A stretch of DNA of 49,111 nt from Caldilineales bacterium (GTDB lineage: Bacteria > Chloroflexota > Anaerolineae > J102): NCBI GenBank assembly GCA_013360575.1, contig JABWBG010000001.1, positions 1 through 49,111 on the forward strand, read 5' to 3'. The number at the start of each line of letters is the position of its first letter. Positions within the stretch are counted from its first letter, which is position 1. Position numbers and translations under genes: made by a program. Of this stretch, positions 7,134-23,577 are shown in pieces. The notes under the pieces are model-generated. The model did no database searches. It was given only the letters and a program-made list of their open reading frames with translations, and had not been told where the DNA came from.

Positions 7134-8537
7134 ATGAAAGACATGCGAGATTTCATTGCCGAGGCCGAAGCCGTTGGAGAACTAAAACGGATCAAAGCAG
7201 AAGTGGATTGGGACCTGGAGCTCAGTCACATCGCGAAGCTCAACGAAGAACAAAGCGGCCCGGCGTTGTTGTTCGAAAACGTGAAGGGGTACACCAGCCC
7301 GGTCATTTCCAGCGTTTGCACCACCACCAACCGCCTGGCCTTGATCATGGGCATGCCGAAAAATACCAGTCTGGTCGAATTGATGCGCGAATGGGTGAAG
7401 CGCACGGCCAAACAAATGCCCCCCCAGTGGGTGGACACCGCGCCCTGCAAGGAAAACATCCTCCACGGGGACGACGTCGATCTGCTCAAGTTCCCGGTTC
7501 CTAAATTCTTTCCTAAAGACGGCGGACGCTTTTTCGGCACCGCCGTTTTTGTTATCACCAAAGACCCCGACACCGGCTGGGTCAACCTGGGCACCTACCG
7601 GCTGCAAGTCCTGGGCAAAAACCTGTTGGGAACCCAGTTCATCAAGGGCAAACACGCCGACATCATGCTCAAGGCCTATGCGGCGCGCAAGGAAAAGATG
7701 CCCGTCGTCGCCGTCGTTGGCGCCGACCCGTTGATGTTCCTGATGGGCGCGGCGCGGCTGCCCGCGTTCGAGTCCGAATATGAGTTCGCCGGCGCCATTC
7801 GCGGCTTCCCCATCGAAATCGTCAAAGGCGAGACGGTGGACCTGCCGATTCCCGCCTCCGCCGAGATCGTGGTCGAGGGCGAGGTGGACCCGGAAGCCAC
7901 CCTGCCCGAAGGCCCGTTTGGGGAATACACCGGCTACTATTCCGGCATCGGCACCACCCCGCGCAACTTCATCAAGGTCAATTGCATCACCCACCGCACC
8001 AACCCCGTCTTCTGGATCAGCACGGTCGGGCGCGCCACCACCGACACGCACATGACCATGGCCCTGACCTACGGCGCCACGCTCTGGCAGGGGTTGGAAG
8101 CGATGCGCATTCCGGGCATCAAATCGGTCTACTGCCCGCCGGAGGGCGCGGGGCGCTTCTTGGCGGTGATCTCCGTCAAACAAATGTACCCCGGCCACGC
8201 CGCCCAGGTCGGCACCGCCGCCATCTCCACCGAGATGGGCGCGTACGGCTTGAAAACCGTCATCGTTGTCGATGAAGACATCGACGCCTGGGACTGGCCG
8301 CGCGTCCTGTGGGCCCTGTCCTTCCGCTTCAACCCCTCCCGCGCCGAATTCATCAAGCGCGGCCGTTCGACGCCGCTCGACCCCTCGCTGCCCATCGAAT
8401 CCCGCGACATCACCTCGCGGCTGATCATCGATGCGACCATCCCCTACGAGTGGAAAGAGAAACCCGTCCCGATCGAACTCGACAAAGCCATCGTCAAACA
8501 GGTGCAGTCCCGCTGGCAGGAACTCGGCCTGGAGTAA
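7134..8537 (+). CDS. UbiD-family prenyl-FMN-dependent (de)carboxylase
   Basis: 467 aa. The N-terminus MKDMRDFIAEAEAVGELKRIKAEVDWDLE...GPALLFENVKGY is the canonical UbiD-family opening. Full length. SD AGAGGAG. Confidence 0.9.
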   Translation: MKDMRDFIAEAEAVGELKRIKAEVDWDLELSHIAKLNEEQSGPALLFENVKGYTSPVISSVCTTTNRLALIMGMPKNTSLVELMREWVKRTAKQMPPQWVDTAPCKENILHGDDVDLLKFPVPKFFPKDGGRFFGTAVFVITKDPDTGWVNLGTYRLQVLGKNLLGTQFIKGKHADIMLKAYAARKEKMPVVAVVGADPLMFLMGAARLPAFESEYEFAGAIRGFPIEIVKGETVDLPIPASAEIVVEGEVDPEATLPEGPFGEYTGYYSGIGTTPRNFIKVNCITHRTNPVFWISTVGRATTDTHMTMALTYGATLWQGLEAMRIPGIKSVYCPPEGAGRFLAVISVKQMYPGHAAQVGTAAISTEMGAYGLKTVIVVDEDIDAWDWPRVLWALSFRFNPSRAEFIKRGRSTPLDPSLPIESRDITSRLIIDATIPYEWKEKPVPIELDKAIVKQVQSRWQELGLE

Positions 8538-8550
8538 TCTCCGCCGACAC

Positions 8551-8595
8551 GAGGCGGAAGAGGCCGCACAATCGGCCTCTTCCGCCTCCTTTTTT
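8551..8595 (+). terminator. Strong intrinsic terminator after the UbiD-family gene
   Basis: Perfect 16-bp stem GAGGCGGAAGAGGCCG / CGGCCTCTTCCGCCTC (8551-8566 / 8573-8588), 6-nt loop, then C-T6 (8590-8595). Confidence 0.8.
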
Positions 8596-8597
8596 AT

Positions 8598-9905
8598 GTG
8601 GAGGCCGTCGTGGCGATTTTCATCATCGGAATGGTGGACGAGCGCGAGGAAGCCCTTACGCTCCTGAAGGAAAAAATCGAGCGCCGCGGGCATCGGGTGG
8701 TGCTGGCGGATGTCAGCATCGGCACCGGCGCCATCGTCCCCGCCCTGAAACCGGACCTGACCCCGGCGGAAATCGCCCAGGCAGGGGGCAGCGACATCGA
8801 AACCGTGCGCGGCCTGCTGGCGAAAGAGCGCGACAAAGCCATCGGCGTCATGGGCGCGGGCATGGCCAACCTGGCGGCGGCGCGGTACGCGGCGGGCGAG
8901 TTGGAGGGCGTGATCGCCGTCGCCGGCATGACCGGCACCGTGCTTTCCCTCACGGTGATGCGCGCCCTGCCCTTCGGCCTGCCCAAAGTATTGATCTCCA
9001 GCGTCGCCGCCATGCCGGCCTACGCCGCTAAATTCGCCGAGTATTTCGGCGTCCGCGACATCACCGTCATGCACACCGTCACCGACACGGTGGGCATGAA
9101 CGCCCTCGTGCGCCGGCTGATGCTCAACGGCGCGGGGGCCGTCTGCGGGATGGTGGAGGCCGCCGAGCCGCCCGCCGCCGCGGACAAGCCGCTGATCGCC
9201 ATGACCGAGTTCGGCTTTTGCGACAAAGGCGCGGGCTACGTGCGGGCGCGCATCCAAGACCGCTTCAACATCGTCTCGTTCCACGCCACCGGCCTGGGCG
9301 ACCGCGCCGTCGAGGACCTGGTGGGGCAGGGCTTGTTCGATGCCTTCATCGATCTGGTGCCGGCCAATTATGGCGAATACCTGCTTGGCGGCAACCGCGC
9401 CGCCGCCCCCGACCGCCTGGAAGCCGCCTGCCGCCGCGGCGTCCCCTACATCCTTTCCCCCTGCGGCTTCGACATGCTTTCCTGCGGCCCCATCGAACGC
9501 CGAGACAAAGCCGACCCGCTGTGGGTTGCCCGCAAATTGGCCGACCGCGCCTTGTTCATCCAGGATGCGATGCGCGTGCAGGCGCGCACCAGCCGTGAGG
9601 AAGTGGTCGCCATCGCCGCGGCCGTGGCCGAGAAACTGAACCGGCACCCGCGCAAAGCCCTGGTCAAGTTCCTCCTCCCGCTCGAAGGCTTCTCCTCGCT
9701 CAGCGTCGCCGGCGGCCAGCTCTACGCCCCAGAAATCGACGCCGCCTTCGCCGCGGCCTTGCGCGCCCATCTCGACCCGGCCATCGAAACGATCGCGGTG
9801 GACGCGCACATCAACACCCCGGAATTCGGCCAGGCCGCGGCCGCCGCGCTGGAAGCGTGTTTGGCCCCTCCGATCCACCACTCCGCCCACCCGACTGACC
9901 CGTGA
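8598..9905 (+). CDS. Tm-1-like ATP-binding protein (UPF0261 family)
   Basis: 435 aa. The N-terminus IIGMVDEREEALTLLKEKIERRGHRVVLADVSIG and the overall length fit UPF0261/Tm-1-like proteins. The GTG start sits 2 nt after the terminator T-run, so start choice is uncertain (alternative GTG 8610). Confidence 0.7.
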   Translation: MEAVVAIFIIGMVDEREEALTLLKEKIERRGHRVVLADVSIGTGAIVPALKPDLTPAEIAQAGGSDIETVRGLLAKERDKAIGVMGAGMANLAAARYAAGELEGVIAVAGMTGTVLSLTVMRALPFGLPKVLISSVAAMPAYAAKFAEYFGVRDITVMHTVTDTVGMNALVRRLMLNGAGAVCGMVEAAEPPAAADKPLIAMTEFGFCDKGAGYVRARIQDRFNIVSFHATGLGDRAVEDLVGQGLFDAFIDLVPANYGEYLLGGNRAAAPDRLEAACRRGVPYILSPCGFDMLSCGPIERRDKADPLWVARKLADRALFIQDAMRVQARTSREEVVAIAAAVAEKLNRHPRKALVKFLLPLEGFSSLSVAGGQLYAPEIDAAFAAALRAHLDPAIETIAVDAHINTPEFGQAAAAALEACLAPPIHHSAHPTDP

Positions 9906-10618
9906 CGAACCCGACCTCCTCCCCGTCCGCCGCGCCGGCTTTCTCCGTCCTGCTCTTCGATTTCGAAGGGACGCTGGTGGATTTCCAGTGGAAACTGCCA
10001 GAGGCGGTGCAGGAAGCCCGCGGCGAATTGCGCCGTCTCGGCTTCCAGGCGATCTCGGAGGCAGCGGATTACGCCGGCATTTACAACCAAACCATGCAAA
10101 TGGCCGCACAATTTGGCCTGGATCCACACCACTTGACAGCGCGGCTGGGCGCCATCTACGACCGCTACGACCGGGACGCGGCCACGCGTTGGTCGGTGCG
10201 GCCGGGCGCCGCCGCCCTGCTGGCGCGGTGGCAGCAGATGCACGCCGCCCGCTTCGGCCTGGTCTCGAACATTGGCCGGCGCGCGCTGGACGAAGCTCTG
10301 CCCCGCCTGGGCCTGGCCGGGTTGTTCGATGTGATTATTTCCCGCAACGAAGTGACCCTGCTCAAACCTTTCGGCGAGGGCCTCCGCCGCGCCATGCGCG
10401 GTCTCAGCGCCGCCCCGGCGCGCACCCTGTTCGTCGGCGACAGCGTTACCGATATTTTGGCCGCCAAAGATGCCGGCATCCCAGCCGCGATCATCCAGGG
10501 GGGAGAAAGCCCCTCCGCCGCCTTGGCCGCGGCAGGCCCTGCTTATTTATGGAAATCTATTGCCGACCTCGAAACTTGCCTCGACGGAGGTGCCGCCATC
10601 AGCCCATTAACAAACTAA
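9902..10618 (+). CDS. HAD-superfamily hydrolase with atypical motif I (DxE)
   Basis: 238 aa. Motif I is LLFDFEGTL (D-F-E instead of DxD), motif II is LVSN, and motif IV is FVGDSVTDILAAKDAG. GTGA start/stop overlap with the upstream gene. Confidence 0.8.
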   Translation: MTNPTSSPSAAPAFSVLLFDFEGTLVDFQWKLPEAVQEARGELRRLGFQAISEAADYAGIYNQTMQMAAQFGLDPHHLTARLGAIYDRYDRDAATRWSVRPGAAALLARWQQMHAARFGLVSNIGRRALDEALPRLGLAGLFDVIISRNEVTLLKPFGEGLRRAMRGLSAAPARTLFVGDSVTDILAAKDAGIPAAIIQGGESPSAALAAAGPAYLWKSIADLETCLDGGAAISPLTN

Positions 10619-10708
10619 CGCCTTTCTGTGTCTGCTGAACGCCTCGTGACCGTGGCCGCGTTGCGCATCCCAACCGCTTTCACCTACACACATTCAAGGA
10701 GAACGAAG

Positions 10709-12550
10709 ATGTCCCAAAAACGCTTTCCCTACGCCTGGGAAGTAAAAGTACCGAAGGAAATGGAAGGATGGGAGGAAATGTATCCAGACCATCGCCTGTT
10801 CACTTCGGACCGGCAGGACTGGGATCAAGATCAATTCTGGTACACCGATAAGATTCACGCCCCGGATCCCATGGTTCCGCTCGATGAAGTTTTTCATCAG
10901 GCATGGCAGATTGCCCTCTCCCAGCACACCACCCGCATTTTCTGCATCCCGCCTGCCCAGGGCATCGCCCACCGGATGCTGGGCTGCTACCTGTACATCA
11001 CCGCCATCGCCCCCCCGCCCTTAGAAATCATCCAGGCCAAGGCGGAAAAGTTCGGGCAGCGCACTTTTCCCGTGTTTGGACATTATGAAGAATTGTGGGG
11101 TCAATGGCGGACACGCCAGCAAGAACTTGGCCGGGAATTGCAGGCGGTCAAGGTGCCCAAAGAACTGCCGCAGTTCGTGCCCGATTTCGACTCGGCCACC
11201 ACGCTGCCGGCCATCGGCCCGGCGCAGGAACTGATCGAGGCTTTCAACCACGCCGTCAACATCATTTATCGAGGCTGGCAGTATCACTTCACCTACCTCA
11301 ACCTCTCCTACCTCGCCTATTTGATGTTTGCCGATGTGGCCCGCAAACTCTTTCCGGGCATCAGCGAAAGCGCGATTGGAAAAATGGTCGCCGGCGCCGA
11401 TGTTTCGATGTTCCGCCCCGAAGAGGAACTTTGCCGCCTGGCGCGCCTGGCCCACACCCGCGAGCGCGTCGCCAACATCCTCAAGGCCGACCGCTCCGCC
11501 AACGCCAAAATCGAGAGCCTGCGCGAGTTCGAAGACGGCCGCATGTGGCTGGAGAGCCTGAGCGAAGTCAAGGATCCCTGGTTCATGGTTTCCTGCGGCA
11601 GCGGCTGGTTCCACTACGAAGGCAGTTGGATTGACAAACTCGACGTGCCGTTCAGCTACCTCAAAGGCTATCTCGAACGCCTGGACCGCGGCGAGCGCAT
11701 CGAGCGTTCGCTGTCCGCGATCACCGACGCGCGCGACGCCATCATTGCCGAATACCGCGGCCTGATCAAATCGGACGAAGACCGCAAGACCTTCGAGGAC
11801 GCCTACAACAACACCCGCACCATCTACCGCTACGCGGAAGACCACCTGTTCTGGGTCGAACATTGGTTCCACACCATCTGGTTCGAGAAAATGCGCGAGT
11901 TCGGACGCTTGTTCGTCAAGCAAGGGGTGCTGAAAGAGACGGACGATTTCTTCATGTTCAACCGCCTCGAAATCCCCTCGCTGATCGAAGATGTCGCCAC
12001 CTCCTGGGCATTGGGCGAGAACATCCCGACGATGAAGTGGGCTGAAAAGGCTGAAAAACGCAAGAAAATCCTGGCTGCCGCCGCCCAGTGGTCGCCGCCG
12101 CCCGCCCTCGGCGTCCCGCCGGAAGTGGTCGCCGAGCCGTTCACCGTCATGCTCTGGGGCGTGACGACCGAACGCGTCACCGAGTGGCTGGAAGGTGCAT
12201 CCGGCCAGGCCGGCAGCGCCGACGAACTGAAGGGCTTCGCCTCTTCCGCCGGCGTGGTCGAGGGCAAAGCCCGCGTGCTCAAACGACTGGAAGACATCGT
12301 CACCCTGGAACAGGACGACATCATGGTCGTGCCGAACACCAACCCCGCCTGGGCGCCGATCTTCTCCAAGATCAAAGCCGCCGTCACCGACATCGGCGGC
12401 ATCACCTCCCACGCCGCCATCGTCTGCCGCGAGTACGGCGTGCCTTCGGTCACCGGCACCGGCTCGGCGACGACCGCCATCAAGACCGGGGACTGGGTCA
12501 AGGTGGACGGCGACCGGGGCCTCGTCACGATCGTGAAACGCGCCGAGTAG
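10709..12550 (+). CDS. PEP-utilising-enzyme mobile-domain protein, phenylphosphate-synthase alpha-type architecture
   Basis: 613 aa from ATG 10709, with SD AAGGAG 7 nt upstream. The C-terminal swivelling domain carries the phospho-histidine motif GGITSHAAIVCREYGVP. The long N-terminal region has no ATP-grasp domain. Confidence 0.7.
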   Translation: MSQKRFPYAWEVKVPKEMEGWEEMYPDHRLFTSDRQDWDQDQFWYTDKIHAPDPMVPLDEVFHQAWQIALSQHTTRIFCIPPAQGIAHRMLGCYLYITAIAPPPLEIIQAKAEKFGQRTFPVFGHYEELWGQWRTRQQELGRELQAVKVPKELPQFVPDFDSATTLPAIGPAQELIEAFNHAVNIIYRGWQYHFTYLNLSYLAYLMFADVARKLFPGISESAIGKMVAGADVSMFRPEEELCRLARLAHTRERVANILKADRSANAKIESLREFEDGRMWLESLSEVKDPWFMVSCGSGWFHYEGSWIDKLDVPFSYLKGYLERLDRGERIERSLSAITDARDAIIAEYRGLIKSDEDRKTFEDAYNNTRTIYRYAEDHLFWVEHWFHTIWFEKMREFGRLFVKQGVLKETDDFFMFNRLEIPSLIEDVATSWALGENIPTMKWAEKAEKRKKILAAAAQWSPPPALGVPPEVVAEPFTVMLWGVTTERVTEWLEGASGQAGSADELKGFASSAGVVEGKARVLKRLEDIVTLEQDDIMVVPNTNPAWAPIFSKIKAAVTDIGGITSHAAIVCREYGVPSVTGTGSATTAIKTGDWVKVDGDRGLVTIVKRAE

Positions 12551-12580
12551 CAGGTCTTCCCGGCGCGCCGGGTACATTCG

Positions 12581-12607
12581 AGGGGCGGCCTTCACGGCCG
12601 CCCCTTT
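12581..12607 (+). terminator. Terminator-like hairpin between the two kinase subunits (weak U-tract)
   Basis: AGGGGCGGCC-TTCAC-GGCCGCCCCT forms a 10-bp stem followed by only TTT. It could attenuate transcription or stabilise the RNA rather than terminate fully. Confidence 0.35.
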
Positions 12608-12631
12608 CGCCATTGCTAAAAAGAGGTCCCC

Positions 12632-13699
12632 ATGGTCTGCATCATTGGGTTCGAAGAACTCGATAAATCATCCCTGCCCATCGTCGGAGGCAAGAACGCC
12701 AGCCTGGGCGAATTGCTGCGGGCCGGCATCCGCGTCCCGCCGGGATTCGCAATCACCACCGATAGTTACCGCGAATTCGTCGCCGCCGCGGGCATCGGCA
12801 ATGAAATCAACCGCCTGCTGGACGAAGTCGAACCTGACGAGGTGCCCTCGCTCGATCGCACCAGCGCGGCGATTCAAGCCTTGATCCTCGAAGCGGAAAT
12901 GCCCGCCCACATCGCCGCCAACATCGAGCAGCACTATCAGGCCTTGTGCGCCCGCTGCCACACGGAAAACCTGCCCGTGGCCGTGCGCTCCAGCGCCACG
13001 GCAGAGGACCTGCCCGACGCCAGTTTCGCCGGCCAGCAGGACACCTACCTCTGGGTGCGCGGCCTGGCTGAAGTCCTGCACCGGGCGCAAAACTGCTGGG
13101 CGAGCCTGTTCACCGCCCGCGCCATCGGCTACCGCGCCCGGCTCAACTTCCCGCCCGACAAGGTGCTGATCAGCGTCGGCGTGCAAAAAATGGTCAATTC
13201 GCGCACCTCCGGCGTCATGTTCACCCTCAACCCCGTCAACGGCGACCACTCGAAGGTGGTGGTGGAAAGCAGTTGGGGCTTCGGAGAGGCAGTCGTCTCC
13301 GGCGCGGTTACGCCGGACCGCTTCGTGGTGGATAAAGTCGTGCGGGAAGTGAACGAACGCGTCATCTCGGCCAAGGCCATCGAGTGCGTCTATCTGCCCG
13401 GCGACGGCGTCGTCCATAACGACGTCCCCCCCGAACGGCAAGCCCAGCCCTCGCTGCACGACAACGAATTGCAGGAACTGGTCACGATCGCCAAACGCAT
13501 CGAAGCGCATTACGGCTGCCCGATGGATATCGAATGGGCCATCGATCACGATCTGCCTTTCCCGGAGAACGTTTTCATCGTCCAGAGCCGGCCGGAAACG
13601 GTGTGGAGCCAGCGCAAACAGGATCACTTGCTCGGCCAAAAGAGCAGTTATCAACTCCTGATGGAAAAAGCCCTCAGCCAGATCCAGGTCAAACGCTGA
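12632..13699 (+). CDS. Stand-alone PEP-synthase/PPDK N-terminal ATP-grasp protein, phenylphosphate-synthase beta-type architecture
   Basis: 355 aa. LPIVGGKNASLGEL and SSATAEDLPDASFAGQQDTYL are the conserved PPDK_N nucleotide-binding motifs. There is no swivel or PEP-binding domain. Confidence 0.75.
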   Translation: MVCIIGFEELDKSSLPIVGGKNASLGELLRAGIRVPPGFAITTDSYREFVAAAGIGNEINRLLDEVEPDEVPSLDRTSAAIQALILEAEMPAHIAANIEQHYQALCARCHTENLPVAVRSSATAEDLPDASFAGQQDTYLWVRGLAEVLHRAQNCWASLFTARAIGYRARLNFPPDKVLISVGVQKMVNSRTSGVMFTLNPVNGDHSKVVVESSWGFGEAVVSGAVTPDRFVVDKVVREVNERVISAKAIECVYLPGDGVVHNDVPPERQAQPSLHDNELQELVTIAKRIEAHYGCPMDIEWAIDHDLPFPENVFIVQSRPETVWSQRKQDHLLGQKSSYQLLMEKALSQIQVKR

Positions 13700-13718
13700 G
13701 CGGCCGGGCGGAGGATCG

Positions 13719-14225: not shown

Positions 14226-14340
14226 AGATGCGACCCGTCATCGGCATGTCCGGCGCCTGCCGCGCCCTGTACGGCATTCGGCTGCGCGAGGTCAAAGGCG
14301 CCGCAACCTGGACAGGCCCCACGCCACACCGGAGCGCAGC

Positions 14341-16331: not shown

Positions 16332-16371
16332 CCGCCCCGTGTGCCAACCTGGACTTGCTCATTTCCCAGCC

Positions 16372-16412
16372 CGCTTGCCCGCAAGCGACGCTTGCCAGCA
16401 AGCGACGCTTGC
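16372..16412 (+). promoter_or_regulatory. Twin 15-bp palindromes (candidate operator)
   Basis: GCAAGCGACGCTTGC occurs at 16381-16395 and 16398-16412 (17-bp period), preceded by CGCTTGC (16372-16378). This gives five alternating GCTTGC/GCAAGC half-sites in the 122-nt gap before the SnoaL-like gene. Confidence 0.4.
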
Positions 16413-16453
16413 CAACAGGCGGCGCAGGCCCCACCCTCAATACGGAGTCGAAG

Positions 16454-16879: not shown

Positions 16880-16955
16880 GTCGCTCAGTGGCCCGGTCAC
16901 CGGGCGCCGAACGCAGGAGGCGCAAGCTAAAGGCCTGACTTGCGGACTCAAACAG

Positions 16956-17050
16956 CAGGCGCGAAAATGGGGGGGTCGTTACGATAGGCCGGCATCGACC
17001 AGATGGCTGCCGCCGGCGCAGGGTGCAGAGTCCGGGTTCTCGCTTGCGGC
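16956..17050 (+). repeat. Dispersed GC-rich repeat, copy 1 (second copy at 31924-32016)
   Basis: CAGGCGCGAAAATGGGGG..TACGA.AGGCC...GCCGCCGGC...GGGTTCT is shared with 31924-32016 over about 95 nt. It contains the GCAGGG(C/T)G core also seen next to the island repeats. Confidence 0.7.
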
Positions 17051-17190
17051 AAGAGGCCCGCCGAACCACCCTTTGCATTGCGGGGCTGCCGCCCACAGTT
17101 CAGGACCTGGCCGAATTGTTTGCACTTTGGACGGGGCGCTGACCCACCCGGCACGCACAAACCAACGTCGATTTTGCAAGGAGTTTGCTC

Positions 17191-18741
17191 ATGAGGGCGA
17201 TCACACACCGAACCGACCACTACAATGCCAGCGCGGTGCTGGATCACAATCTCGCCGAAGGGCGCGGCGACAAAGTCGCCATCTACACCCGCGACCAGGC
17301 CTACACCTACCAGCAACTCGGCGAGCTGGCCAACCGGGCCGGCAACGCCCTGAAGGAACTGGGCGTGGAACAGGAGCAGCGAGTCTTGATGCTCTTGCTC
17401 GACACGCCGCAGTTCCCGGCCACCTTTTTCGGCGCCATCAAAATCGGCGCTGTGCCCATCCCCACCAACACGGTGATGCAGTCCGCCGATTACGCCTACT
17501 TTCTGAACGACAGCCGCGCCAGAGTGGCAGTGGTGAGCGGGCCGCTGTACAAACTCATCGAACCGATCCGGGCCACCTGCAAGTACCTCAAACAGGTGAT
17601 CGTGGTCGATGGCGATGACGCGCCCGGCGTGATTGACTGGCAGACATGGGTGGACGCCGCCTCGCCCAGCCTGGACCCGGCGGACACCTCGCCCGACGAC
17701 ATCGCCTTCTGGCTGTACAGTTCCGGCTCGACCGGCTTCCCCAAAGGCGCGGTGCACCTGCAGCACGACATCGCCTTCACGGTCGAGAACTACGCGCGCG
17801 GCGTGATCCACATGACCGAGAACGATCTGTGCTTCTCCGGCTCGAAACTGTTTCACGCCTACGGCCTGGGCAACAACATGACCTTCCCCTACGGCGTCGG
17901 CGCAAGCTCCGTGCTCTTCCCCGGACGCCCCACCCCCGACGCGCTGTTCGGGATCATCACGCGCTTTCATCCCACACTCTTCTTCTCGGTGCCGACGATG
18001 TACGCGGCGATGCTGGCCGCGCCCGAAGCCGAGAAAAAATACGACCTGAGTTCGGTGCGGCTGTGCGTCTCGGCGGCCGAGGCGCTGCCGGCAGAGATTT
18101 ATCGGCAGTGGAAAGAAAAGTTCGGGGTGGAAATCCTCGACGGCATCGGCTCGACCGAGATGCTGCACATCTTCATCTCCAACTATCCGGGACGCGTGCG
18201 AGCAGGGTCAAGCGGGCAACTTGTGCCCGGCTATACCGCCAGACTCACCGACGAGAATGGGCGAGAAGTCCCGGCAGGCGAGATCGGCGACCTGCTGATC
18301 AGCGGCGACAGCGCCGCGCCCTTCTACTGGAACAAGCACGAAAAGAGCAAATACACCATGCGCGGCGAGTGGATGTTCACCGGCGACAAATACCACATGG
18401 ACGCCGACGGCTATTTCTGGTACGACGGGCGCTCGGACGACATGCTGAAGGTGGGCGGGGCCTGGGTCTCGCCGATTGAGGTGGAGAGCGCGCTGATCGA
18501 ACATCCGGCGGTGCTGGAGAGCGCGGTGGTGGGCACCAAAGATGAGGCGGGATTGGTCAAAGCCAAAGCCTTCGTGGTTTTGCAAGAGGGCGTCAAGGGA
18601 TCGCCGGAGCTGGTCAAAGAGCTGCAGGAGTTCGTCAAAGCCCGCATCGCCCCCTACAAATATCCGCGCATGATCGAATTCGTGCCAGATTTGCCGAAGA
18701 CGGTCACCGGGAAGATTCAGCGGTACAAGTTACGCCAGTAG
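17191..18741 (+). CDS. Benzoate-CoA ligase family (benzoate/4-hydroxybenzoate-type aromatic acid CoA ligase)
   Basis: 516 aa from ATG 17191, with SD AAGGAG 7 nt upstream. YNASAVLDHNLAEGRGDKVAIY...DTPQFPATFFGAIKIGAVPIPTNT..ADYAYFLNDSRARVAVVS closely follows the benzoate-CoA ligase family pattern. AMP-binding SSGSTGFPKG is present. Confidence 0.85.
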   Translation: MRAITHRTDHYNASAVLDHNLAEGRGDKVAIYTRDQAYTYQQLGELANRAGNALKELGVEQEQRVLMLLLDTPQFPATFFGAIKIGAVPIPTNTVMQSADYAYFLNDSRARVAVVSGPLYKLIEPIRATCKYLKQVIVVDGDDAPGVIDWQTWVDAASPSLDPADTSPDDIAFWLYSSGSTGFPKGAVHLQHDIAFTVENYARGVIHMTENDLCFSGSKLFHAYGLGNNMTFPYGVGASSVLFPGRPTPDALFGIITRFHPTLFFSVPTMYAAMLAAPEAEKKYDLSSVRLCVSAAEALPAEIYRQWKEKFGVEILDGIGSTEMLHIFISNYPGRVRAGSSGQLVPGYTARLTDENGREVPAGEIGDLLISGDSAAPFYWNKHEKSKYTMRGEWMFTGDKYHMDADGYFWYDGRSDDMLKVGGAWVSPIEVESALIEHPAVLESAVVGTKDEAGLVKAKAFVVLQEGVKGSPELVKELQEFVKARIAPYKYPRMIEFVPDLPKTVTGKIQRYKLRQ

Positions 18742-18976
18742 CCAGTCGGGCGCAGGGCGCTGCGCAGAAAGGATGCTGAGCCACCCATGACCTACTTTTT
18801 GAAGGCGCGGCGCTTTCACGTTCAGCCGTGAAGGAGGTGAAACGACAACGAACTTTTATAGACGCCCTGTGCATGATCGGATTGTTTAGGAGTACGCTGG
18901 CCCTGCCACGTGCACGCAATCGGATGCTGTGACCCGGTCAGCCTTTCCACCACCCACACGAACATTGGAGGAAACG

Positions 18977-20269
18977 ATGAATACGCCCCTTGGGCATCTG
19001 CCAGCCAAGCTGGCGCGACTTGCCCTCTTGTTTGCGGTGTGCAGCCTGGTGCTCGCGGCCTGCGCCACACCCCCCCCCACCTCGCCGCCCGCGGCCACGG
19101 CGGCCCCGCCCACAGCAGTCCCGCCCACAGCGGTCCCGCCCACCCCCGTCCCGGCGGAACCGATCAAAATCGGCACGCTGACCGACCTGACCAGTTCCTT
19201 CACCCCCTGGGGCGTGCAGGCCCGCGACGGGATGGCGCTGGCAGCCAAGGAAATCAACGAAGCCGGCGGCGTGGATGGCCGCATGATCGAGATCATCGTC
19301 CAAGACACGGAAAACAACGCCGACATCGGCGTCGACCGCTTCGAGCGGCTCGTCGAGGACGGCGTGGTCGCGGTTGGCGGCATCATTTCCAGCGGCGTCG
19401 GCGTGCCGGTTGCCGCCGCGGCCGAACAGGCAAAGATGCCGCTCTTCCTGGTCAAATCCGGCACCCAGGCCGCCCTCACCCGGAACAGCCGCTACACCTT
19501 CCGCACCTGTCTGCCGGCGGCGCCGATGGACGCCGCGCCGGTGCTACAGTACGCCCGCGAGAAAGGGTTCACCAAGGTCGGGGGCATCGTGGCCGACTAC
19601 CCGTGGGGGCAAGCCATGAAGGCCGCCATCGAGAACACATTCAAGGACTCCGGCATTGAATTCACCATCGAAGTGGCGCCGGTGCCGCCAACCACCGACT
19701 TCACCCCCTTTGTGCGGGCGATGGCCGACTTTGGCGCGCAGATGATCGTGGGCACCGGCCATCCGCCGGGCAACTCGGCCATCGTCGCCCTATCAGCCGA
19801 CCTGGCCGGGAACGTGCCGGTCACCGGCTCGTGGGTGCCGCCAACTCTGGCCGTCGGCGGCTTGCAGGAGCTGGCCATCGGGCGCTTTAGCGATTTCGCC
19901 TGCGCCGACTACTTCAGCGACAGTTACGCCGATCTGGCCAAGCGCTACCTGGCCTTCTCCGATAATAAGCTGATGTCGGACGACGCCGTGGCCGGCTATG
20001 CCATCGTGCAAATCGTCGCCCGGGCAGTCAAGGCGGTTGGCGACGACCCGGCAGCCATCGCCGCGTATGTCCATGCCAACTCCTTCGACATGCCGGGCTA
20101 TGGCCACACGCTGAGCTGGACCGAGTGGGGCGAGATGGCCGAGGCCCGGCCACTCTTCACCATCATCAGCGCAGGCCCCGCGCCCGCGGGCTTGAATGAA
20201 GCCGGAGACTGGTGGTTCGAGTTGCTGACCCATTCCGACCCGCTCGAACCCTACATGCCGGAGCAATAG
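18977..20269 (+). CDS. LivK-type ABC substrate-binding lipoprotein with long Pro/Thr/Ala linker
   Basis: Signal peptide with lipobox LAAC, then ATPPPTSPPAATAAPPTAVPPTAVPPTPVPAEP, then the periplasmic-binding fold (IKIGTLTDLTS...). ATG 18977 has SD GGAGG. Confidence 0.85.
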   Translation: MNTPLGHLPAKLARLALLFAVCSLVLAACATPPPTSPPAATAAPPTAVPPTAVPPTPVPAEPIKIGTLTDLTSSFTPWGVQARDGMALAAKEINEAGGVDGRMIEIIVQDTENNADIGVDRFERLVEDGVVAVGGIISSGVGVPVAAAAEQAKMPLFLVKSGTQAALTRNSRYTFRTCLPAAPMDAAPVLQYAREKGFTKVGGIVADYPWGQAMKAAIENTFKDSGIEFTIEVAPVPPTTDFTPFVRAMADFGAQMIVGTGHPPGNSAIVALSADLAGNVPVTGSWVPPTLAVGGLQELAIGRFSDFACADYFSDSYADLAKRYLAFSDNKLMSDDAVAGYAIVQIVARAVKAVGDDPAAIAAYVHANSFDMPGYGHTLSWTEWGEMAEARPLFTIISAGPAPAGLNEAGDWWFELLTHSDPLEPYMPEQ

Positions 20270-20275
20270 CGCCCC

Positions 20276-21016
20276 ATGGCCCTACTCGAGCTGGATCAGG
20301 TGCACAAGCACTTTGGCGGTCTGGCCGCGGTCAATGGCGTGAACGTGCGGGCCGACGATGGCGAGATCCTGGCCATCGTCGGCCCCAACGGCGCCGGCAA
20401 GAGCACGCTGCTCAAGCTGATCGTCGGCCTCGAAACGCCGACCCGAGGCGCCATCCGGTTCGCCGGCCAGGAGATCACCCAGGCCCCGCCCCACCGCGTG
20501 CGCCAGATGGGAATCGCCATGGTGCAACAGACGCCCCGCCACTTTGCCTCGATGACCGCGCTGGAGAATGTGGCGCTGGGCGCGCTCTTTGGCCGGGCAG
20601 GCGCGCATCGCCAGGAAGAGCAGGCCCTGGAGCTGGCCGGCGAGGCGCTGTCGTTCGTCGGCCTGGCCGACCGCCGCCACGACCTCGTCGGGCATCTCAA
20701 CTTGCACGAGCAGCGCTTCCTGGAACTGGCCCGGGCCATCGCCGGAGGCCCCCGGCTGTTGGCGCTGGATGAAGTGATGGCCGGCCTCAACGATACCGAG
20801 CTGGAGGCCTCCATCGCCATCATCCGAGCGATCCGTGATCAGTTCAACATGACCATCATCTGGGTGGAGCACGTCATGAAGGCGGTGATGAGCCTGGCGG
20901 AACGGGTGGTGGTGCTCGATTTCGGAACTATCCTCACCGAGGGACTGCCCGCAGAGGTGATGCGCCACCCGGCAGTCGTCAAGGCCTATCTGGGCCAGGA
21001 GATGAATCATGCTTGA
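20276..21016 (+). CDS. ABC transporter ATP-binding protein (LivG-type)
   Basis: Walker A GPNGAGKST, with signature and Walker B regions present. 246 aa. Confidence 0.9.
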   Translation: MALLELDQVHKHFGGLAAVNGVNVRADDGEILAIVGPNGAGKSTLLKLIVGLETPTRGAIRFAGQEITQAPPHRVRQMGIAMVQQTPRHFASMTALENVALGALFGRAGAHRQEEQALELAGEALSFVGLADRRHDLVGHLNLHEQRFLELARAIAGGPRLLALDEVMAGLNDTELEASIAIIRAIRDQFNMTIIWVEHVMKAVMSLAERVVVLDFGTILTEGLPAEVMRHPAVVKAYLGQEMNHA

Positions 21017-21707
21017 GGTGGCGGGGTTCTCGGCCGGATACCAGGGCAACGATGTGCTCCACGCTGTGGCCTTTCGGGTCGATGCCGGTGAGGCGGTGAT
21101 GATCATTGGCTCGAACGGCGCCGGCAAGACAACGCTGTTCCGGGCGATGTGCGGGCTGCTCTCGCCCTCTGCCGGTCAGGTTCGCTTCGAGGGGAATGAC
21201 ATCACCCGGCTGCCGGCGGAACGCATCGCCCGACTGGGGCTGCGGTTTGTCTCCGCGGAGCGGCATCTGTTCCCCCGCATGACCGTGCAGGAAAACCTGC
21301 TGCTGGGCGCCTATCCCCACCGGCCCGATCCCCAGACCCTGTCGACCGTGCTGGAGTTATTTCCCCGTCTGGCCGAGCGGCGGCGGCAGCACGCCGGAAC
21401 GATGAGCGGCGGCGAGCAACAGATGCTGGCCGTGGGGCGGGCGCTGATGTCCAAACCCCGCCTTCTCGTGCTGGACGAGCCAAGCACAGGACTGGCCCCT
21501 TTGCTGGCTCAGGCCACGTACAAGGCCCTCAGGGTGCTGCGCAAACAGGGGCTGACCGTGCTGGTGGCCGAGCAGCAGGTGCCGCTGGCCATGGCCTTCA
21601 GCGATCGGGGGTACGTCCTCGAAAACGGTTTCATCCGGCTGCAGGGCACGACCGCAGAACTGGCGGCCCATCCCGGCATCCGCAGCGCTTATTTAGGAGT
21701 GACATGA
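21009..21707 (+). CDS. ABC transporter ATP-binding protein (LivF-type)
   Basis: Walker A GSNGAGKTT, signature MSGGEQQML, Walker B LLVLDEP. 8-nt overlap with the upstream gene. Confidence 0.9.
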   Translation: MLEVAGFSAGYQGNDVLHAVAFRVDAGEAVMIIGSNGAGKTTLFRAMCGLLSPSAGQVRFEGNDITRLPAERIARLGLRFVSAERHLFPRMTVQENLLLGAYPHRPDPQTLSTVLELFPRLAERRRQHAGTMSGGEQQMLAVGRALMSKPRLLVLDEPSTGLAPLLAQATYKALRVLRKQGLTVLVAEQQVPLAMAFSDRGYVLENGFIRLQGTTAELAAHPGIRSAYLGVT

Positions 21708-22561
21708 TAGCCAACATCCTTGACGGGATCGTGCTCGGGCTGCAATTCGGCCTGCTGGCCGTGGGGCTTACCCTGGTCTACGGCCTGGGCGGTGTGCTCA
21801 ACCTGGCCCACGGGCAGATGGCAGTCGCCGCGGCCATGGTGGTGGCGCTGGCCCAGGCCGCCGGCCTGCCCATCTGGCTTGCAGCCGGGCTGGGCCTGCT
21901 CGCCGGCGGCCTGATGGGCCTGATTCTGGATCTAACGATCCTGCGCCCGGTGTACCGCTTGCGCGGCGAGGCGCGGGTGCTGCTCAGTCTGCTGCTCACG
22001 CTGGGCGTGTCTTTCACCGTCGAAGGCTTCCTCAACTGGCGCTATGCACTGGGCGCCCTGAGCCTGCGCATCGGGGGTGGGGCGGTCGAGATTCTGGGCG
22101 TGCCCATGCGACGGGGCAGCCTGGCCGCTTCGGCGATCACGCTCGCCACCTTTGCAGCCCTCTTCCTTTTCTTCCGCTACACCTCCCTGGGCCGGGCAGT
22201 GCGTTCGGTGATCGAAGATCAGGAGGGCGCCCGCCTGGTCGGCATCTATCCCCACCGGATGCTGCGCCTGATCCTGGTGCTGAGCGGCGTCCTGGCGGCG
22301 CTGGTGGCGATCACCCGCGCCATGGTCACCCCGATCGATGTGCACTCCGGCCTTTCCATCACCACCTTCGCGCTCATCGTCACCGTGGTGGGGGGGCTGG
22401 GCAACGTGGCCGGGGCCTTGCTGGCAGGGCTCATTCTGGGGATCGTGAACGCCGTCGCCGCCGACCTCATCGGCACCTATATCTCGCTGATCATCCTGCT
22501 GGGGGCCGCGGCGCTGACCATCCTCACCCGCCCGGCCGGGTTGTTGGGGGTGCGGGAATGA
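21704..22561 (+). CDS. Branched-chain-type ABC permease (LivH-type)
   Basis: 285 aa, polytopic. The N-terminus ILDGIVLGLQFGLLAVGLTLVYG is typical. ATGA overlap with the upstream gene. Confidence 0.85.
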   Translation: MIANILDGIVLGLQFGLLAVGLTLVYGLGGVLNLAHGQMAVAAAMVVALAQAAGLPIWLAAGLGLLAGGLMGLILDLTILRPVYRLRGEARVLLSLLLTLGVSFTVEGFLNWRYALGALSLRIGGGAVEILGVPMRRGSLAASAITLATFAALFLFFRYTSLGRAVRSVIEDQEGARLVGIYPHRMLRLILVLSGVLAALVAITRAMVTPIDVHSGLSITTFALIVTVVGGLGNVAGALLAGLILGIVNAVAADLIGTYISLIILLGAAALTILTRPAGLLGVRE

Positions 22562-23577
22562 GTGATCGCCCCACCCACAGCGCCGGCGCCTTCTCGCTCG
22601 GAGGGGTCGAGGCGCACGCCTCCCGATCGCTCCCTCGTCTGCTCCTACCGATTGCCGCGGTGGGCGCGGGGCTGGCTCTGCTGCCCCTCTGGCTCGGCCA
22701 TTCGCGGGTGCTCATGGGCGTCGCCGTCCTGGGGCTGGCCTATGTCTGTTACACCATCGCCTTCAACGTGATCTTCGGCAGCACCGGGCAGTTGTTCCTG
22801 TGCGTTGGCGCGCTCGCCGGCATCGGCGGTTACGGCGGCGCCATCCTGGCCGACAGCGCGGGATGGCCAATCGCCGCGAGCATCCTGGCCGCCACCCTCG
22901 CCGCCACCCTGACCGGCGGACTGCTCAGTTTCGTGGCGGTGCGGCGCTCTCTGGGGGTGATCTTCACCGGCATCATCACCCTCATCTTCTCGTTATCGTT
23001 CGATGCCCTGGTGCTGGGGCTGGGCGAACTGACGGGTGGAGATACGGGGCGGCTGATCACGTCCGGCGCGGGCACATTGCTGCGCGACAAGATCCCGCCC
23101 TACTATCTGATGCTGGCCCTCGCGCTCCTCTTTCTGCTGGTGCACGGGCTGCTGCGGCGCTCCCATGTCGGCTGGGCCTTCCGCGCCCTGCGCGACGACG
23201 AAGTCGCCGCCGAGCTGGCCGGTGTGGATGTCGCCCGTTACCGGGTCTACGCCGCGCTGGTCGGGGCAGCGATGCTGGGCCTGGCCGGCTCGACCTACGC
23301 TTTCACCGAGGGCCGCATCAGCCCGACAACTTTCGGCTTCGGCGAAGTCGATATCGTCGTATTGGTGATGCTGGGCTTCGGCGGCATCGGCGCCCTGTTC
23401 GGCCCCATCGTGGGCGCGGTCACCTTCACCATCGTCGACGAGATCCTGATCGATTTCGGACAGTTGCGGCATGTGGCCTACGGGATGCTGATCATTCTGC
23501 TGTTTCTGCGGCTGCCGCGCGGCGCCATCCCCACCCTGGCCGGGCTGTGGCAGCGCAGGCGCAGGCCGAAAGGCTAG
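22558..23577 (+). CDS. Branched-chain-type ABC permease (LivM-type)
   Basis: 339 aa, polytopic. ATGA overlap with the upstream permease. The motif RALRDDEVAAELAGVDV is typical of LivM. Confidence 0.85.
   Translation: MSDRPTHSAGAFSLGGVEAHASRSLPRLLLPIAAVGAGLALLPLWLGHSRVLMGVAVLGLAYVCYTIAFNVIFGSTGQLFLCVGALAGIGGYGGAILADSAGWPIAASILAATLAATLTGGLLSFVAVRRSLGVIFTGIITLIFSLSFDALVLGLGELTGGDTGRLITSGAGTLLRDKIPPYYLMLALALLFLLVHGLLRRSHVGWAFRALRDDEVAAELAGVDVARYRVYAALVGAAMLGLAGSTYAFTEGRISPTTFGFGEVDIVVLVMLGFGGIGALFGPIVGAVTFTIVDEILIDFGQLRHVAYGMLIILLFLRLPRGAIPTLAGLWQRRRRPKG

Follow-up and report, generated by a model that had tools for sequence, protein, structure and literature searches.

The closest described relatives of the gene cluster reported here are the 'phe' cluster of Desulfatiglans anilini (H567DRAFT_02049-02059) and the pps-ppcB clusters of Geobacter metallireducens and Syntrophorhabdus (PMC6114531, PMC1924859, PMC5946492). 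This published type has a single ppcB and is without ppcA, ppcC, ppcD or ppsC in the cluster. D. anilini grown on phenol induces exactly the same gene set, with ppcB only; in single-PpcB systems, phenylphosphate carboxylase activity has never been shown in extracts. The cluster of Thauera aromatica and Azoarcus sp. KH32C (NC_020548.1), organized as ppsABC-ppcBDAG(C)-ubiD-ubiX-DUF120-nudix-ligase, follows the same logic. The D. anilini 'ani' cluster combines the phenylphosphoamidate synthase PasAB with two PpcB-like UbiD subunits (PMC7500099).

The window analysed here is a stretch of 49,111 nucleotides from an uncultured wastewater bacterium of the Anaerolineae; the host is indeed Chloroflexota, a possibility that the initial annotation had considered. 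Every gene of the earlier list was recovered with Pfam and NCBIfam profiles; all lie on the + strand and are tightly spaced, with intergenic gaps of -8 to 305 nt. With a probability of about 0.7, we read the region 7134-16331 as the single-PpcB pathway of strict anaerobes, leading from phenol or a close phenolic analogue to 4-hydroxybenzoyl-CoA. The core of the earlier interpretation (phosphorylation, carboxylation and CoA activation) is supported by homology and phylogeny, by the cut-offs of curated HMMs and by the conserved gene context.

The window shares ppsA, ppsB, a single ppcB-like UbiD, a PaaK-type ligase and UPF0261 with the phe, Geobacter and Syntrophorhabdus clusters, a gene set that is phenol-induced in D. 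anilini. They are also alike in the absence of ppcA, ppcC and ppcD and in their strictly anaerobic hosts. The window differs from them in its Chloroflexota host, in the absence of ubiX, hcrABC and a regulator gene, in a DERE-subtype UPF0261 gene that is placed immediately after UbiD and is not paired with a DHB-AMP-ligase-type ligase, and in additional genes for a DxE HAD protein, a Nudix hydrolase and a histidine phosphatase. Five proteins have orthologues in the Azoarcus cluster: PpsA (40%), PpsB (54%), PpcB (50%), Nudix (47%) and the PaaK-type ligase (69%). Compared with the Thauera/Azoarcus type, the window lacks PpsC (CBS), PpcA, PpcC/gamma, the KdsC-like PpcD, PpcX, UbiX and DUF120, and carries UPF0261, a DxE HAD of type IA and a histidine phosphatase instead. 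The claim that the composition departs from described systems therefore holds for Thauera, but not for Geobacter, D. anilini and Syntrophorhabdus. The ani cluster resembles the window in its split dikinase, PpcB-like UbiD, acyl-CoA synthetase and UPF0261 protein (03869), and its genes are induced together; however, it depends on two UbiD paralogues with 52% identity to each other, against the one UbiD of the window, and its PasA is only 27 per cent identical to the PpsA of D. anilini (PMC7500099).

Searches by tblastn with the canonical Azoarcus proteins revealed no PpcA-type second UbiD, PpcC/gamma, PpcD, PpsC or UbiX in the 49-kb window, in agreement with the absence of small carboxylase subunits, a third synthase subunit and ubiX that had been noted before. 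Genes for hcrABC and benzoyl-CoA reductase were likewise not found within the window; the genes for dehydroxylation (HcrABC) and for reduction of the ring must lie beyond its limits.

The gene at 7134-8537 (+ strand) codes for a PpcB-like carboxylase of the prFMN-dependent UbiD family (467 aa), with all three UbiD domains. The protein scores 514.8 bits with TIGR02724, the NCBI equivalog for phenylphosphate carboxylase beta (cut-off 468.95), and is far under the cut-offs of the E. coli-type UbiD, VdcC and PpcA models. Its identity is 49.7 per cent to Azoarcus PpcB and 33 per cent to PpcA, and the motifs NLGTYR, SEYEFAG and PEGPFGEYTGYY are intact. In the UbiD tree it lies in an 84-row clade of strict anaerobes whose sister is the PpcB clade; it thus groups with PpcB, apart from PpcA, E. 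coli UbiD and PpcX. This enzyme would carboxylate the ring para to the oxygen as the phosphate leaves. The clustering with ubiquinone UbiD that the initial annotation had named as a possible objection is not seen, since the tree separates them and NF008175, with its cut-off of 788, gives 272.7 bits (TIGR03701: 291 against 496). These scores also weigh against a non-catabolic role, in which a UbiD decarboxylase would serve quinone biosynthesis or detoxification and the dikinase would be a relative of PEP synthase or antibiotic phosphotransferases. UbiD enzymes are reversible and many of the orthologues are annotated by JGI as 4-hydroxy-3-polyprenylbenzoate decarboxylase, which would suit such a role, but the conserved context of aryl-CoA ligase, Hcr-like and UbiX genes does not fit it.

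In the gap that separates the UbiD gene from the UPF0261 gene, a terminator scan and folding identified a strong hairpin (8551-8588, + strand; 16-bp stem, -35 kcal/mol) with a T-run. It is likely to be a partial terminator or an mRNA-stabilizing element: contigs from RNA runs continue through it, and four related loci (L009, L010, L011 and L020) have strong hairpins at the equivalent site, with sequences unrelated to that of the window.

The phenol-activating step is represented by a split dikinase. The PpsA-like subunit (10709-12550, + strand), preceded by an AAGGAG Shine-Dalgarno sequence ahead of its ATG, consists of a substrate-binding N-terminal region and a phospho-His swivel domain. It reaches 805.8 bits with NF006153 (cut-off 578), and Pfam recognizes only the C-terminal PEP-utilizers mobile domain (PF00391). 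The phospho-His is His568, within the intact motif GGITSHAAI. The PpsB-like ATP-grasp subunit (12632-13699, + strand) matches PF01326 (PPDK_N) with 402 bits. Identity to the Azoarcus proteins is 40.4 per cent for PpsA (614 aa) and 53.8 per cent for PpsB. Because this full-length identity is to the canonical synthase, we infer that PpsB charges His568 of PpsA, from which the phosphoryl group would pass to the phenolic hydroxyl to give aryl phosphate, AMP and Pi. Through its ATP-grasp part, PpsB does reach 398-406 bits with models of PEP synthase; however, both subunits stay far under the cut-offs, with 398 and 94 bits for PEP synthase (TIGR01418, cut-off 740) and 294 and 95 bits for rifampicin phosphotransferase (cut-off 999), and the pair, PpsA included, has no PEP/pyruvate-binding TIM-barrel domain. 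The earlier concern that the kinases might be of these types is thereby answered, and the non-catabolic role is already contradicted by these findings and highly improbable.

The same enzymology could serve a substrate other than phenol, namely another phenolic or an aniline-type compound such as a cresol, catechol, hydroquinone, aniline or a hydroxylated aromatic of wastewater. In trees that exclude the experimentally studied D. anilini proteins, the window PpsA falls in clade A, sister to the canonical clade B; it is thus outside the clade of the canonical phenol enzyme, to which it is about 40 per cent identical, and its phenolic substrate could therefore differ. Moreover, the UbiD partners of four PpsA-like clades are nearly identical, two loci (L001 and L002) have two PpsA paralogues for one PpsB, and D. 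anilini employs the same enzyme types for aniline (PMC7500099). The second ligase of the window most resembles anthranilate- and benzoate-CoA ligases, and the window is without hcr genes. We nevertheless consider another substrate unlikely. UbiD keeps 72-87 per cent identity whatever its context, which speaks for a single carboxylation substrate shared by all, and in Desulfobacterota, the Desulfatiglandales among them, clade A PpsA is the type that accompanies Hcr-like genes. As to aniline, D. anilini PasA is only 27 per cent identical to PpsA of the same organism, so an aniline enzyme should fall outside clades A to D.

The reading as a phenol pathway also draws on the recurrence of the cluster. 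At least 80 other species have the same genes in the surroundings of a UbiD orthologue (72-87% identity). These are the 80 species-representative genomes kept from 535 encoding a relative, and recurrence on this scale places the shared gene set far beyond chance. The loci hold genes for PpsA, PpsB, UPF0261, aryl-CoA ligase, UbiX and 4-hydroxybenzoyl-CoA-reductase-like proteins; the best model for HcrA of locus L002 is TIGR03194 (886 bits). Their hosts include Desulfatiglandales and Syntrophorhabdus, whose members are key syntrophic phenol degraders.

The UPF0261/Tm-1-like protein (8598-9905, + strand; N- and C-terminal domains PF06792 and PF23189) belongs to a 'DERE' subtype. It had been regarded as an extra, but is present in nearly all clusters of this type: a UPF0261 gene lies beside this UbiD in 27 of the 31 well-flanked loci, and four Chloroflexota loci have none nearby. 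The sole characterized member of UPF0261 is the ATP-dependent phenolic kinase MarK ('multiple aromatic kinase', Saro_1862) of Novosphingobium aromaticivorans (PMC12624787), which is also the closest solved relative of the window protein (PDB 9MPY). Both have the two-domain fold of the family and occur in aromatic-catabolic contexts. His219 of MarK, which hydrogen-bonds the phenolic oxygen, corresponds to His229 in the window, and the adjacent Gly195 to Gly206. However, the similarity is only 154 bits, the ATP-site Lys16 is replaced by Arg16, and the ketone-binding His348 and stacking His304 of MarK are missing; the Arg and the conserved His are invariant in all 17 proteins of the DERE subtype. 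MarK acts aerobically, upstream of a biotin carboxylase, whereas the window protein sits with a UbiD enzyme (PMC12624787). The conserved residues make the protein a candidate aryl (phenolic) phosphotransferase, and the loss of the needed Lys and of His304 and His348 would count against a MarK-like role. Its substrates might be the same phenol/phenylphosphate pair, on which it would work as an additional, ADP-forming kinase or, alternatively, as a component of the carboxylase. In D. anilini, growth on phenol raises the abundance of UPF0261 protein 02057 about 50-fold, and 03869 was seen only on aniline or 4-aminobenzoate, an induction never discussed in the proteome papers.

The HAD-IA hydrolase (9902-10618, + strand; Pfam and NCBIfam) has a GTG start that overlaps the UPF0261 stop, indicating translational coupling. 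Its DxE motif I reads DFEGT, and 10 orthologues encoded in clusters of Chloroflexota and Desulfobacterota all have D[FL]EGT there. It is not a homologue of the KdsC-like PpcD, which belongs to a different HAD subfamily. The protein is a candidate phosphatase partner of the carboxylase and may take the phosphate-removing role of PpcD as its functional analogue.

The zinc-ribbon Nudix hydrolase (13719-14225, + strand; PF14803, PF00293) and the PaaK-type ligase (15036-16331, + strand) had likewise been listed as extras, and are orthologues of genes of the canonical Azoarcus sp. KH32C pps-ppc cluster. The Nudix protein is 47 per cent identical (E 8e-46) to the one encoded after UbiX-DUF120, and the ligase (ORF14 type) is 69.3 per cent identical over 430 aa to the product of the AMP-binding gene. 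The branch 1 histidine phosphatase (14341-15033, + strand; PF00300, His_Phos_1) lies between them; its RHGE motif and the Nudix box are intact by reading of the sequences. Nudix adjoins UbiX in L001-L003 and L069, where histidine phosphatase, Nudix and UbiX are contiguous, and the phosphatase follows UbiX in L013 and L014. Because of this recurrent adjacency to ubiX, both proteins may serve the supply of the prFMN precursor, with UbiX encoded elsewhere. The ligase most likely starts at ATG 15036, 2 nt past the phosphatase stop. [quoted passage not shown]

Assemblies of wastewater and bioreactor RNA runs contain the cluster in greater abundance than its neighbours, contigs being a poor quantitative measure. 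Two runs (X8 and X9) gave single contigs of 6.4-8.7 kb that cover the genes from UbiD as far as PpsB or the histidine phosphatase. In an activated-sludge run (X10), contig depth was 22-58 from UbiD to PpsB, compared with 2.5-4 over the cassettes upstream and 0-1 over the trp genes next to the cluster. Co-expression, on which the earlier proposal depended, is thus borne out at the level of assembled contigs, where the core genes occur together at similar depth.

An attached, window-specific module (16454-23577) would provide aromatic-acid uptake and CoA activation. It begins with a SnoaL/NTF2-like protein (16454-16879, + strand; 141 aa, PF12680, 54 bits), to which the gene call was corrected from a spurious 123-aa ORF at 16339-16710. 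No homologue was found in other loci by tblastn, and a SnoaL_2 gene upstream of UbiD in L091 is unrelated. The benzoate/anthranilate/4-hydroxybenzoate-type ligase (17185-18741, + strand) scores 675 bits with TIGR02262, the benzoate-CoA ligase family (cut-off 375); in the PDB it best matches 4WV3, an anthranilate-CoA ligase, and 2V7B and 4EAT, both benzoate-CoA ligases (about 480-514 bits). The LivK-type importer noted before is present with its five genes (LivK/G/F/H/M: binding protein, two ATPases, two permeases; 18929-23577, + strand, Pfam) and is probably for aromatic acids; its binding protein has only weak similarity (at most 64 bits) to solved ones. The chances are even that the span is two unrelated units, the phenol-activation operon 7134-16331 and an independent operon 16454-23577 for external benzoate, 4-hydroxybenzoate or anthranilate. 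The SnoaL-like, ligase and importer genes are found in the window and in none of the 87 related loci, gaps of 122, 305 and 187 nt lie in between, and the depth profile in RNA assemblies differs, the LivK gene being much the highest. Yet the modules adjoin on the same strand, both feed one aryl-CoA pool, and L080 has a benzoate-type ligase near its cluster. This alternative touches no more than the question of whether the span forms one unit, and the phenol pathway at 7134-16331 can hold alongside it.

The single-carboxylase type of phenol activation, known from strict anaerobes, is thus found here in the Anaerolineae. Peculiar to this Anaerolineae variant are the translational coupling of a DERE-type UPF0261 to a HAD with conserved DxE and the absence of ubiX and hcr from the window. 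The most interesting part of the cluster is UPF0261 itself, a conserved kinase-like gene whose role in the phenol pathway has never been assigned.

The cluster at positions 7134–23577 of the window is genuine, conserved and expressed, and belongs to the phenol-type activation pathway of strict anaerobes. Every gene named in the initial annotation was recovered on the + strand; the start of the PaaK-type ligase and the frame of the SnoaL-like gene had to be corrected. On the basis of Pfam and NCBIfam models, the cluster opens with a UbiD gene (7134–8537), followed after 60 nt by a UPF0261 (Tm-1-like) gene (8598–9905; PF06792 and PF23189) and a type IA HAD gene (9902–10618). The start of the HAD gene overlaps the UPF0261 stop, and these two genes are translationally coupled. 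Next come the genes for a PpsA-like protein of 613 aa (10709–12550), a PpsB-like stand-alone ATP-grasp protein (12632–13699; PPDK_N, PF01326), a zinc-ribbon Nudix protein (13719–14225), a branch-1 histidine phosphatase (14341–15033) and the PaaK-type ligase (15036–16331). The right-hand module comprises the SnoaL-like gene (16454–16879), a gene for a benzoate-CoA-ligase-family enzyme (17185–18741) and five genes of a Liv-type ABC importer (18929–23577). Intergenic gaps across the cluster range from −8 to 305 nt. An ORF of 123 aa (16339–16710) was discarded: it matches no family, is rich in Arg and Pro and overlaps the true SnoaL-like frame.

The UbiD protein scores 514.8 bits with TIGR02724, the NCBI equivalog model of phenylphosphate carboxylase beta (cut-off 468.95). 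The canonical annotated reference used here is the plasmid pAZKH of Azoarcus sp. KH32C, found in PLSDB; the window protein is 49.7% identical to its PpcB and 33% identical to its PpcA. The closest solved relative is PhdA (PDB 7PDA). The motifs NLGTYR, SEYEFAG and PEGPFGEYTGYY are intact; on the Fdc1/UbiD literature, we take them to be the metal/prFMN and Glu-Arg-Glu sites. The alternative of a decarboxylase of ubiquinone (UbiD) or menaquinone (MqnL type) synthesis was rejected: the protein reaches 272.7 bits with NF008175 (E. coli-type UbiD; cut-off 788) and 291.3 bits with TIGR03701 (menaquinone decarboxylase; cut-off 495.9), and falls far under the cut-offs of the VdcC and PpcA models. In a quick tree with long outgroup branches, it belongs to a Chloroflexota subclade of a tight clade of strict anaerobes (84 rows), sister to the Azoarcus PpcB clade; PpcA, E. 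coli UbiD, PpcX and a phthaloyl-CoA-decarboxylase-like protein fall outside. Scores and tree thus both separate it from the ubiquinone enzyme, with which it might have clustered. The experimentally studied proteins of D. anilini are absent from this tree and from the PpsA tree; none of the PpsA- or UbiD-like proteins in the analysed sets corresponds to peptides back-translated from the published D. anilini RT-PCR primers. A homologue search started from a Desulfatiglandaceae UbiD yielded unnamed or MAG proteins only.

Two of the compared loci, L029 (1444–6201) and L059 (4072–7070), carry two tandem UbiD paralogues, about 75% and about 50% identical to that of the window, the second of which groups with Azoarcus PpcB. 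This arrangement recalls D. anilini, where two PpcB-like subunits, 52% identical, are required for aniline carboxylation. Hairpins of −31 to −41 kcal/mol, unrelated in sequence, lie directly 3′ of the UbiD stop in the window (8551–8588) and in four Anaerolineae relatives (L009, 11405–11496; L010, 1828–1912; L020, 2831–2912; L011, 5953–6052). A T-run follows the hairpin in the window copy only, and contigs from RNA runs read through it. The hairpin may set the ratio of UbiD to downstream expression or stabilize the transcript.

The two kinase genes have the split architecture proposed initially. In the 640-aa PpsA ORF the swivel domain (PF00391), the sole recognised domain, is C-terminal and confined to residues 561–631, and PF01326 spans the 355 aa of PpsB. 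This is the layout of the Thauera-type synthase, with an alpha chain of about 610 aa carrying the swivel and a beta chain of about 355 aa carrying the ATP-grasp. The same two-gene layout is found in Azoarcus, with full-length homology (40.4% identity, 614 aa, for PpsA; 53.8%, 333 aa, for PpsB). The catalytic histidine of PpsA is His568, within GGITSHAAI, and the protein passes the NF006153 cut-off. Identity as a PEP synthase or a rifampicin phosphotransferase, which the initial annotation had raised as a possible objection, was rejected. The two chains reach 398 and 94 bits with TIGR01418 (PEP synthase; cut-off 740) and 294 and 95 bits with NF041857 (rifampicin phosphotransferase; cut-off 999), and neither chain matches the PEP/pyruvate-binding TIM barrel PF02896 in Pfam. 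The PpsA-like proteins linked to this type of UbiD form four clades. Clade A, the largest, contains the window protein along with others from Desulfobacterota and Anaerolineae, whereas Azoarcus PpsA, the canonical enzyme, groups with Syntrophorhabdus in the sister clade B.

In L001/L002 (13353–17138), from a Chloroflexota genome, UbiD and HAD genes are followed by two tandem divergent PpsA paralogues and a single PpsB, which suggests two phenolic substrates served by one common ATP-grasp subunit. Transposases and a large integrase both interrupt and flank the L001 cluster, suggesting cluster mobility.

The gene content was compared with that of the described systems. The order on pAZKH is ppsA-ppsB-ppsC(CBS)-ppcB-ppcD-ppcA-ppcG-UbiD family-UbiX-DUF120-NUDIX-AMP-binding. 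With Azoarcus queries, tblastn detected in the window no second UbiD (PpcA), no PpcC/gamma (PpcG) and no KdsC-like PpcD, and no match to the CBS-domain gamma subunit PpsC across the 49 kb; neither ubiX nor hcr genes are present in the same 49 kb. The single UbiD and the lack of small carboxylase subunits, third synthase subunit and ubiX, as first described, therefore stand for the window. The composition had on these grounds been called non-canonical, which holds only against the Thauera type, for the missing PpsC, PpcA, PpcC, PpcD and UbiX. Two of the supposedly extra genes are ordinary members of canonical clusters, since the Nudix protein and the PaaK-type ligase are 47% and 69% identical to their Azoarcus counterparts.

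The window shares with the Thauera-type synthase the alpha/beta split, the homology and the catalytic histidine, and with the Thauera-type carboxylase a PpcB-type UbiD; it differs in having no PpsC, present in both Thauera and Azoarcus, and no PpcA, PpcC/gamma or KdsC-like PpcD (the Thauera subunits as summarized in the D. anilini papers). The gamma subunit of the Thauera synthase is only stimulatory (cited in PMC6114531). Beyond Thauera, the suggestion that the composition differs from the described systems was not borne out, because D. anilini, G. metallireducens and Syntrophorhabdus share the same single-ppcB set. The phenol-induced cluster of D. anilini has ppc-beta as its only ppc gene, together with pps-alpha and pps-beta and genes for a PaaK-like ligase, Hcr and UbiX; ppc-gamma is missing from the genome, carboxylase activity could not be demonstrated, and the situation in G. 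metallireducens is the same (PMC6114531). The Geobacter genome paper reports only a putative operon, Gmet_2100-2102 (PMC1924859), and Syntrophorhabdus shares PpsAB, PpcB and a UbiX-like gene (PMC5946492). In the aniline route of D. anilini, PasAB acts with two PpcB-like proteins (PMC7500099). With this group the window has in common ppsA, ppsB, one ppcB-like UbiD and an aryl-CoA ligase on one strand, as well as the accompanying UPF0261 gene. It differs by lacking over 49 kb the ubiX and hcr genes found in or near those clusters. Among the papers searched, none describes a single-PpcB phenol pathway in Anaerolineae.

Relatives of the UbiD protein number in the thousands; the best 120, from metagenomes of Chloroflexi and Desulfobacterota, show 75–98% identity. 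There are 535 species-representative stretches encoding a relative. The best 80 of the 535 (72–87% identity) span Anaerolineae, Syntrophorhabdaceae, Desulfatiglandales, Desulfobacterales, Syntrophaceae and others; all of these 80 are MAGs, with no cultured reference among them. Identity to Syntrophorhabdus, Desulfatiglandales and Desulfobacteraceae MAGs is 72–78%. Gene maps of 88 loci reveal two layouts: PpsA-PpsB-UbiD-(response regulator)-AMP ligase-UPF0261-UbiX-HcrB/C/A in Desulfobacterota, and UbiD-UPF0261-HAD-PpsA-PpsB-histidine phosphatase/Nudix in the closest Anaerolineae (L009/L091, L010 and L020). In the 31 non-redundant loci that are flanked by 6 kb or more on either side, the genes present within 8 kb include PpsA (30 of 31), an aryl-CoA ligase (25), UbiX (19) and Hcr-like genes (16); the top model for the Hcr-like large subunit is 4-hydroxybenzoyl-CoA reductase alpha. 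After the L091 cluster, on the opposite strand (18158–21404), are genes for a 4Fe-4S protein, a protein of 621 aa from the aldehyde:ferredoxin-oxidoreductase family, which may be a BamB-like ring reductase and matches the AOR model only partially (209 bits; cut-off 868), and a pyridine-nucleotide-disulfide oxidoreductase.

The UPF0261 gene is a near-constant companion of this UbiD: it lies within 2.5 kb of UbiD in 27 of the 31 well-flanked loci (also 27 within 8 kb), and the remaining four are Chloroflexota with a different, NagD-like HAD directly after UbiD. Three subtypes were distinguished across the loci: DERE, named after its D-E-R-E motif with Arg and placed after UbiD as in the window; D-S/T-K; and D-T-K, always placed after an AMP ligase. 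The first enzymatic activity in the family was reported in 2025 for MarK (Saro_1862) of Novosphingobium aromaticivorans, which uses ATP to phosphorylate a phenolic hydroxyl, releasing ADP (structure PDB 9MPY; PMC12624787). The window protein matches MarK with 154 bits and keeps both ligands of the phenolic oxygen (MarK His219 and Gly195; here His229 and Gly206), which are invariant in the DERE subtype; MarK His304 and His348 are missing. At the contact with the ATP alpha-phosphate, a lysine (K16 in MarK, K20 in Tm-1) is needed for MarK activity (PMC12624787). This residue is Arg16 in the window, Arg in 17 of 17 DERE-subtype proteins and Lys in the other two subtypes.

The link between UPF0261 and anaerobic phenol and aniline clusters is readable from published proteome tables (PMC7500099, Table_1). 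H567DRAFT_02057, the UPF0261 protein of the D. anilini phenol cluster, has areas of 2.5e9 on phenol, 5.0e7 on aniline, 5.3e7 on benzoate and 0 on 4-aminobenzoate; for H567DRAFT_03869, of the aniline cluster, the areas are 5.4e9 on 4-aminobenzoate, 6.5e8 on aniline and 0 on both benzoate and phenol. Each gene adjoins an acyl-CoA/AMP ligase gene (02058 and 03870, respectively). The main texts of the D. anilini papers term 02058 ‘function unknown’, and the UPF0261 family is unmentioned in the main texts of both.

The HAD protein is of type IA with a DxE motif, does not belong to TIGR02726 and is unrelated to the KdsC-like PpcD. Its motif I, D[FL]EGT, is invariant in ten clusters from two phyla, and we infer that it fills the phosphatase role of PpcD. 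The enolase-phosphatase E1 also has DxE and acts on an enol phosphate, an analogy that may serve as a lead only. A second HAD gene, of the type IIA NagD-like group, lies at 44552–45346, distant from the cluster; its product is 36% identical to the HAD directly 3′ of UbiD in the Chloroflexota loci without UPF0261.

In Chloroflexota, UbiX, Nudix and histidine phosphatase fill the slot after ppsB in varying mixes. The latter two genes adjoin ubiX in four loci (L001–L003 and L069), and in Azoarcus the Nudix gene alone does so; this adjacency supports a role of both proteins in cofactor supply. UbiX requires dimethylallyl phosphate, which Nudix enzymes are able to produce from the diphosphate. In the window sequences both the Nudix box and the RHGE motif are intact. 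On the Azoarcus plasmid (NC_020548.1; locus L094, 15977–17575), UbiX, DUF120 and NUDIX genes are consecutive within the canonical phenol cluster. DUF120 is a CTP-dependent riboflavin-kinase family, and the trio looks like a small prFMN-supply module with a Nudix orthologous to that of the window.

The right-hand module was found in the window only, among the mapped loci. The nearest relatives of its benzoate-type ligase are anthranilate- and benzoate-CoA ligases, and the Liv binding protein is only weakly similar to any solved one. The Anaerolineae variant is new in that a DERE UPF0261 is coupled to a DxE HAD, ubiX and hcr are not local, and the core is joined to a module of uptake and ligase genes for aromatic acids.

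The GC content is 47–49% at the left end of the window and 56–70% from about 6.9 kb on, and the 5′ flank of the cluster is a cassette region rich in toxin–antitoxin genes. The sole sigma-70-like promoter match 5′ of UbiD (within 6858–7133) is at 6858–6886. There is no regulator gene with the cluster in the window; relatives carry IclR, LysR or response-regulator genes. The 3′ flank consists of trpF-nudix-trpB-trpA, a T-box leader and trpEGDC, followed by housekeeping genes. A functional tie to this trp operon, with an indole or anthranilate substrate, was dismissed: L091, which is the nearest of the relatives whose 3′ flank is long, has no trp genes there (the flanks of L010 and L020 being annotated for cluster families only), and in RNA assemblies the depth of the trp block is far below that of the cluster.

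The assembly collection contains an identical UbiD protein in 119 blocks, and 85–98% of the words of 7134–16331 are found in more than 12 RNA runs from wastewater, bioreactors and activated sludge. On the basis of this wide occurrence, the host seems to be a cosmopolitan treatment-plant member of the Anaerolineae. Expression was gauged by assembled-contig depth, a crude measure. In RNA run X10 it is 22–58 for UbiD to PpsB, 7–18 for Nudix to PaaK, 2.5–4 for the upstream cassettes and 0–1 for trp; runs X8 and X9 give the same ranking, with single contigs running from UbiD through PpsB or beyond. LivK has the highest depth in the RNA assemblies. Run X1, flat at about 102 over everything and probably DNA-bearing, was set aside. 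By this crude measure the core genes occur together in RNA runs, as expected of co-expressed genes.

Anaerobic phenol degradation is well understood for the Thauera enzyme only. In strict anaerobes, namely iron reducers, sulfate reducers and syntrophs, the make-up of the carboxylase has been a puzzle since 2009–2018, given ppcB alone and no activity in extracts. The compact order UbiD-UPF0261-HAD points to concrete candidate partners. We infer phenol or a close analogue as the substrate, and the UPF0261, HAD, Nudix and histidine phosphatase proteins presumably have roles in the pathway. A bolder proposal, to which we give about one chance in five, is that the aryl-phosphate carboxylase of strict anaerobes would consist of a PpcB-like prFMN UbiD, a UPF0261 phosphotransferase (here of the DERE/Arg subtype) and, in Anaerolineae, a DxE HAD, with UPF0261 handling the phosphoryl group at the carboxylase. 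UPF0261 might form phenylphosphate with conversion of one ATP to ADP, which would be cheaper than the AMP-forming dikinase; or it might return the phosphoryl group to ADP at the moment when phenolate moves into the prFMN site, so that ATP would be recovered. Xie and Müller explicitly raised the question of how the cells can afford to carboxylate phenol and activate hydroxybenzoate, at a cost of up to four ATP equivalents (PMC6114531). Such a three-part machine, if real, would explain why single-PpcB systems have yet to yield a reconstituted carboxylase activity and how energy-limited anaerobes pay for phenol activation. If the ordinary reading alone is true, the value is modest: Anaerolineae of treatment plants would be better annotated as potential phenol degraders. 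With this cluster, a lineage of Chloroflexota (Anaerolineae) joins the carriers of the strict-anaerobe pathway, in an organism common in wastewater and bioreactor samples, where the cluster is transcribed.
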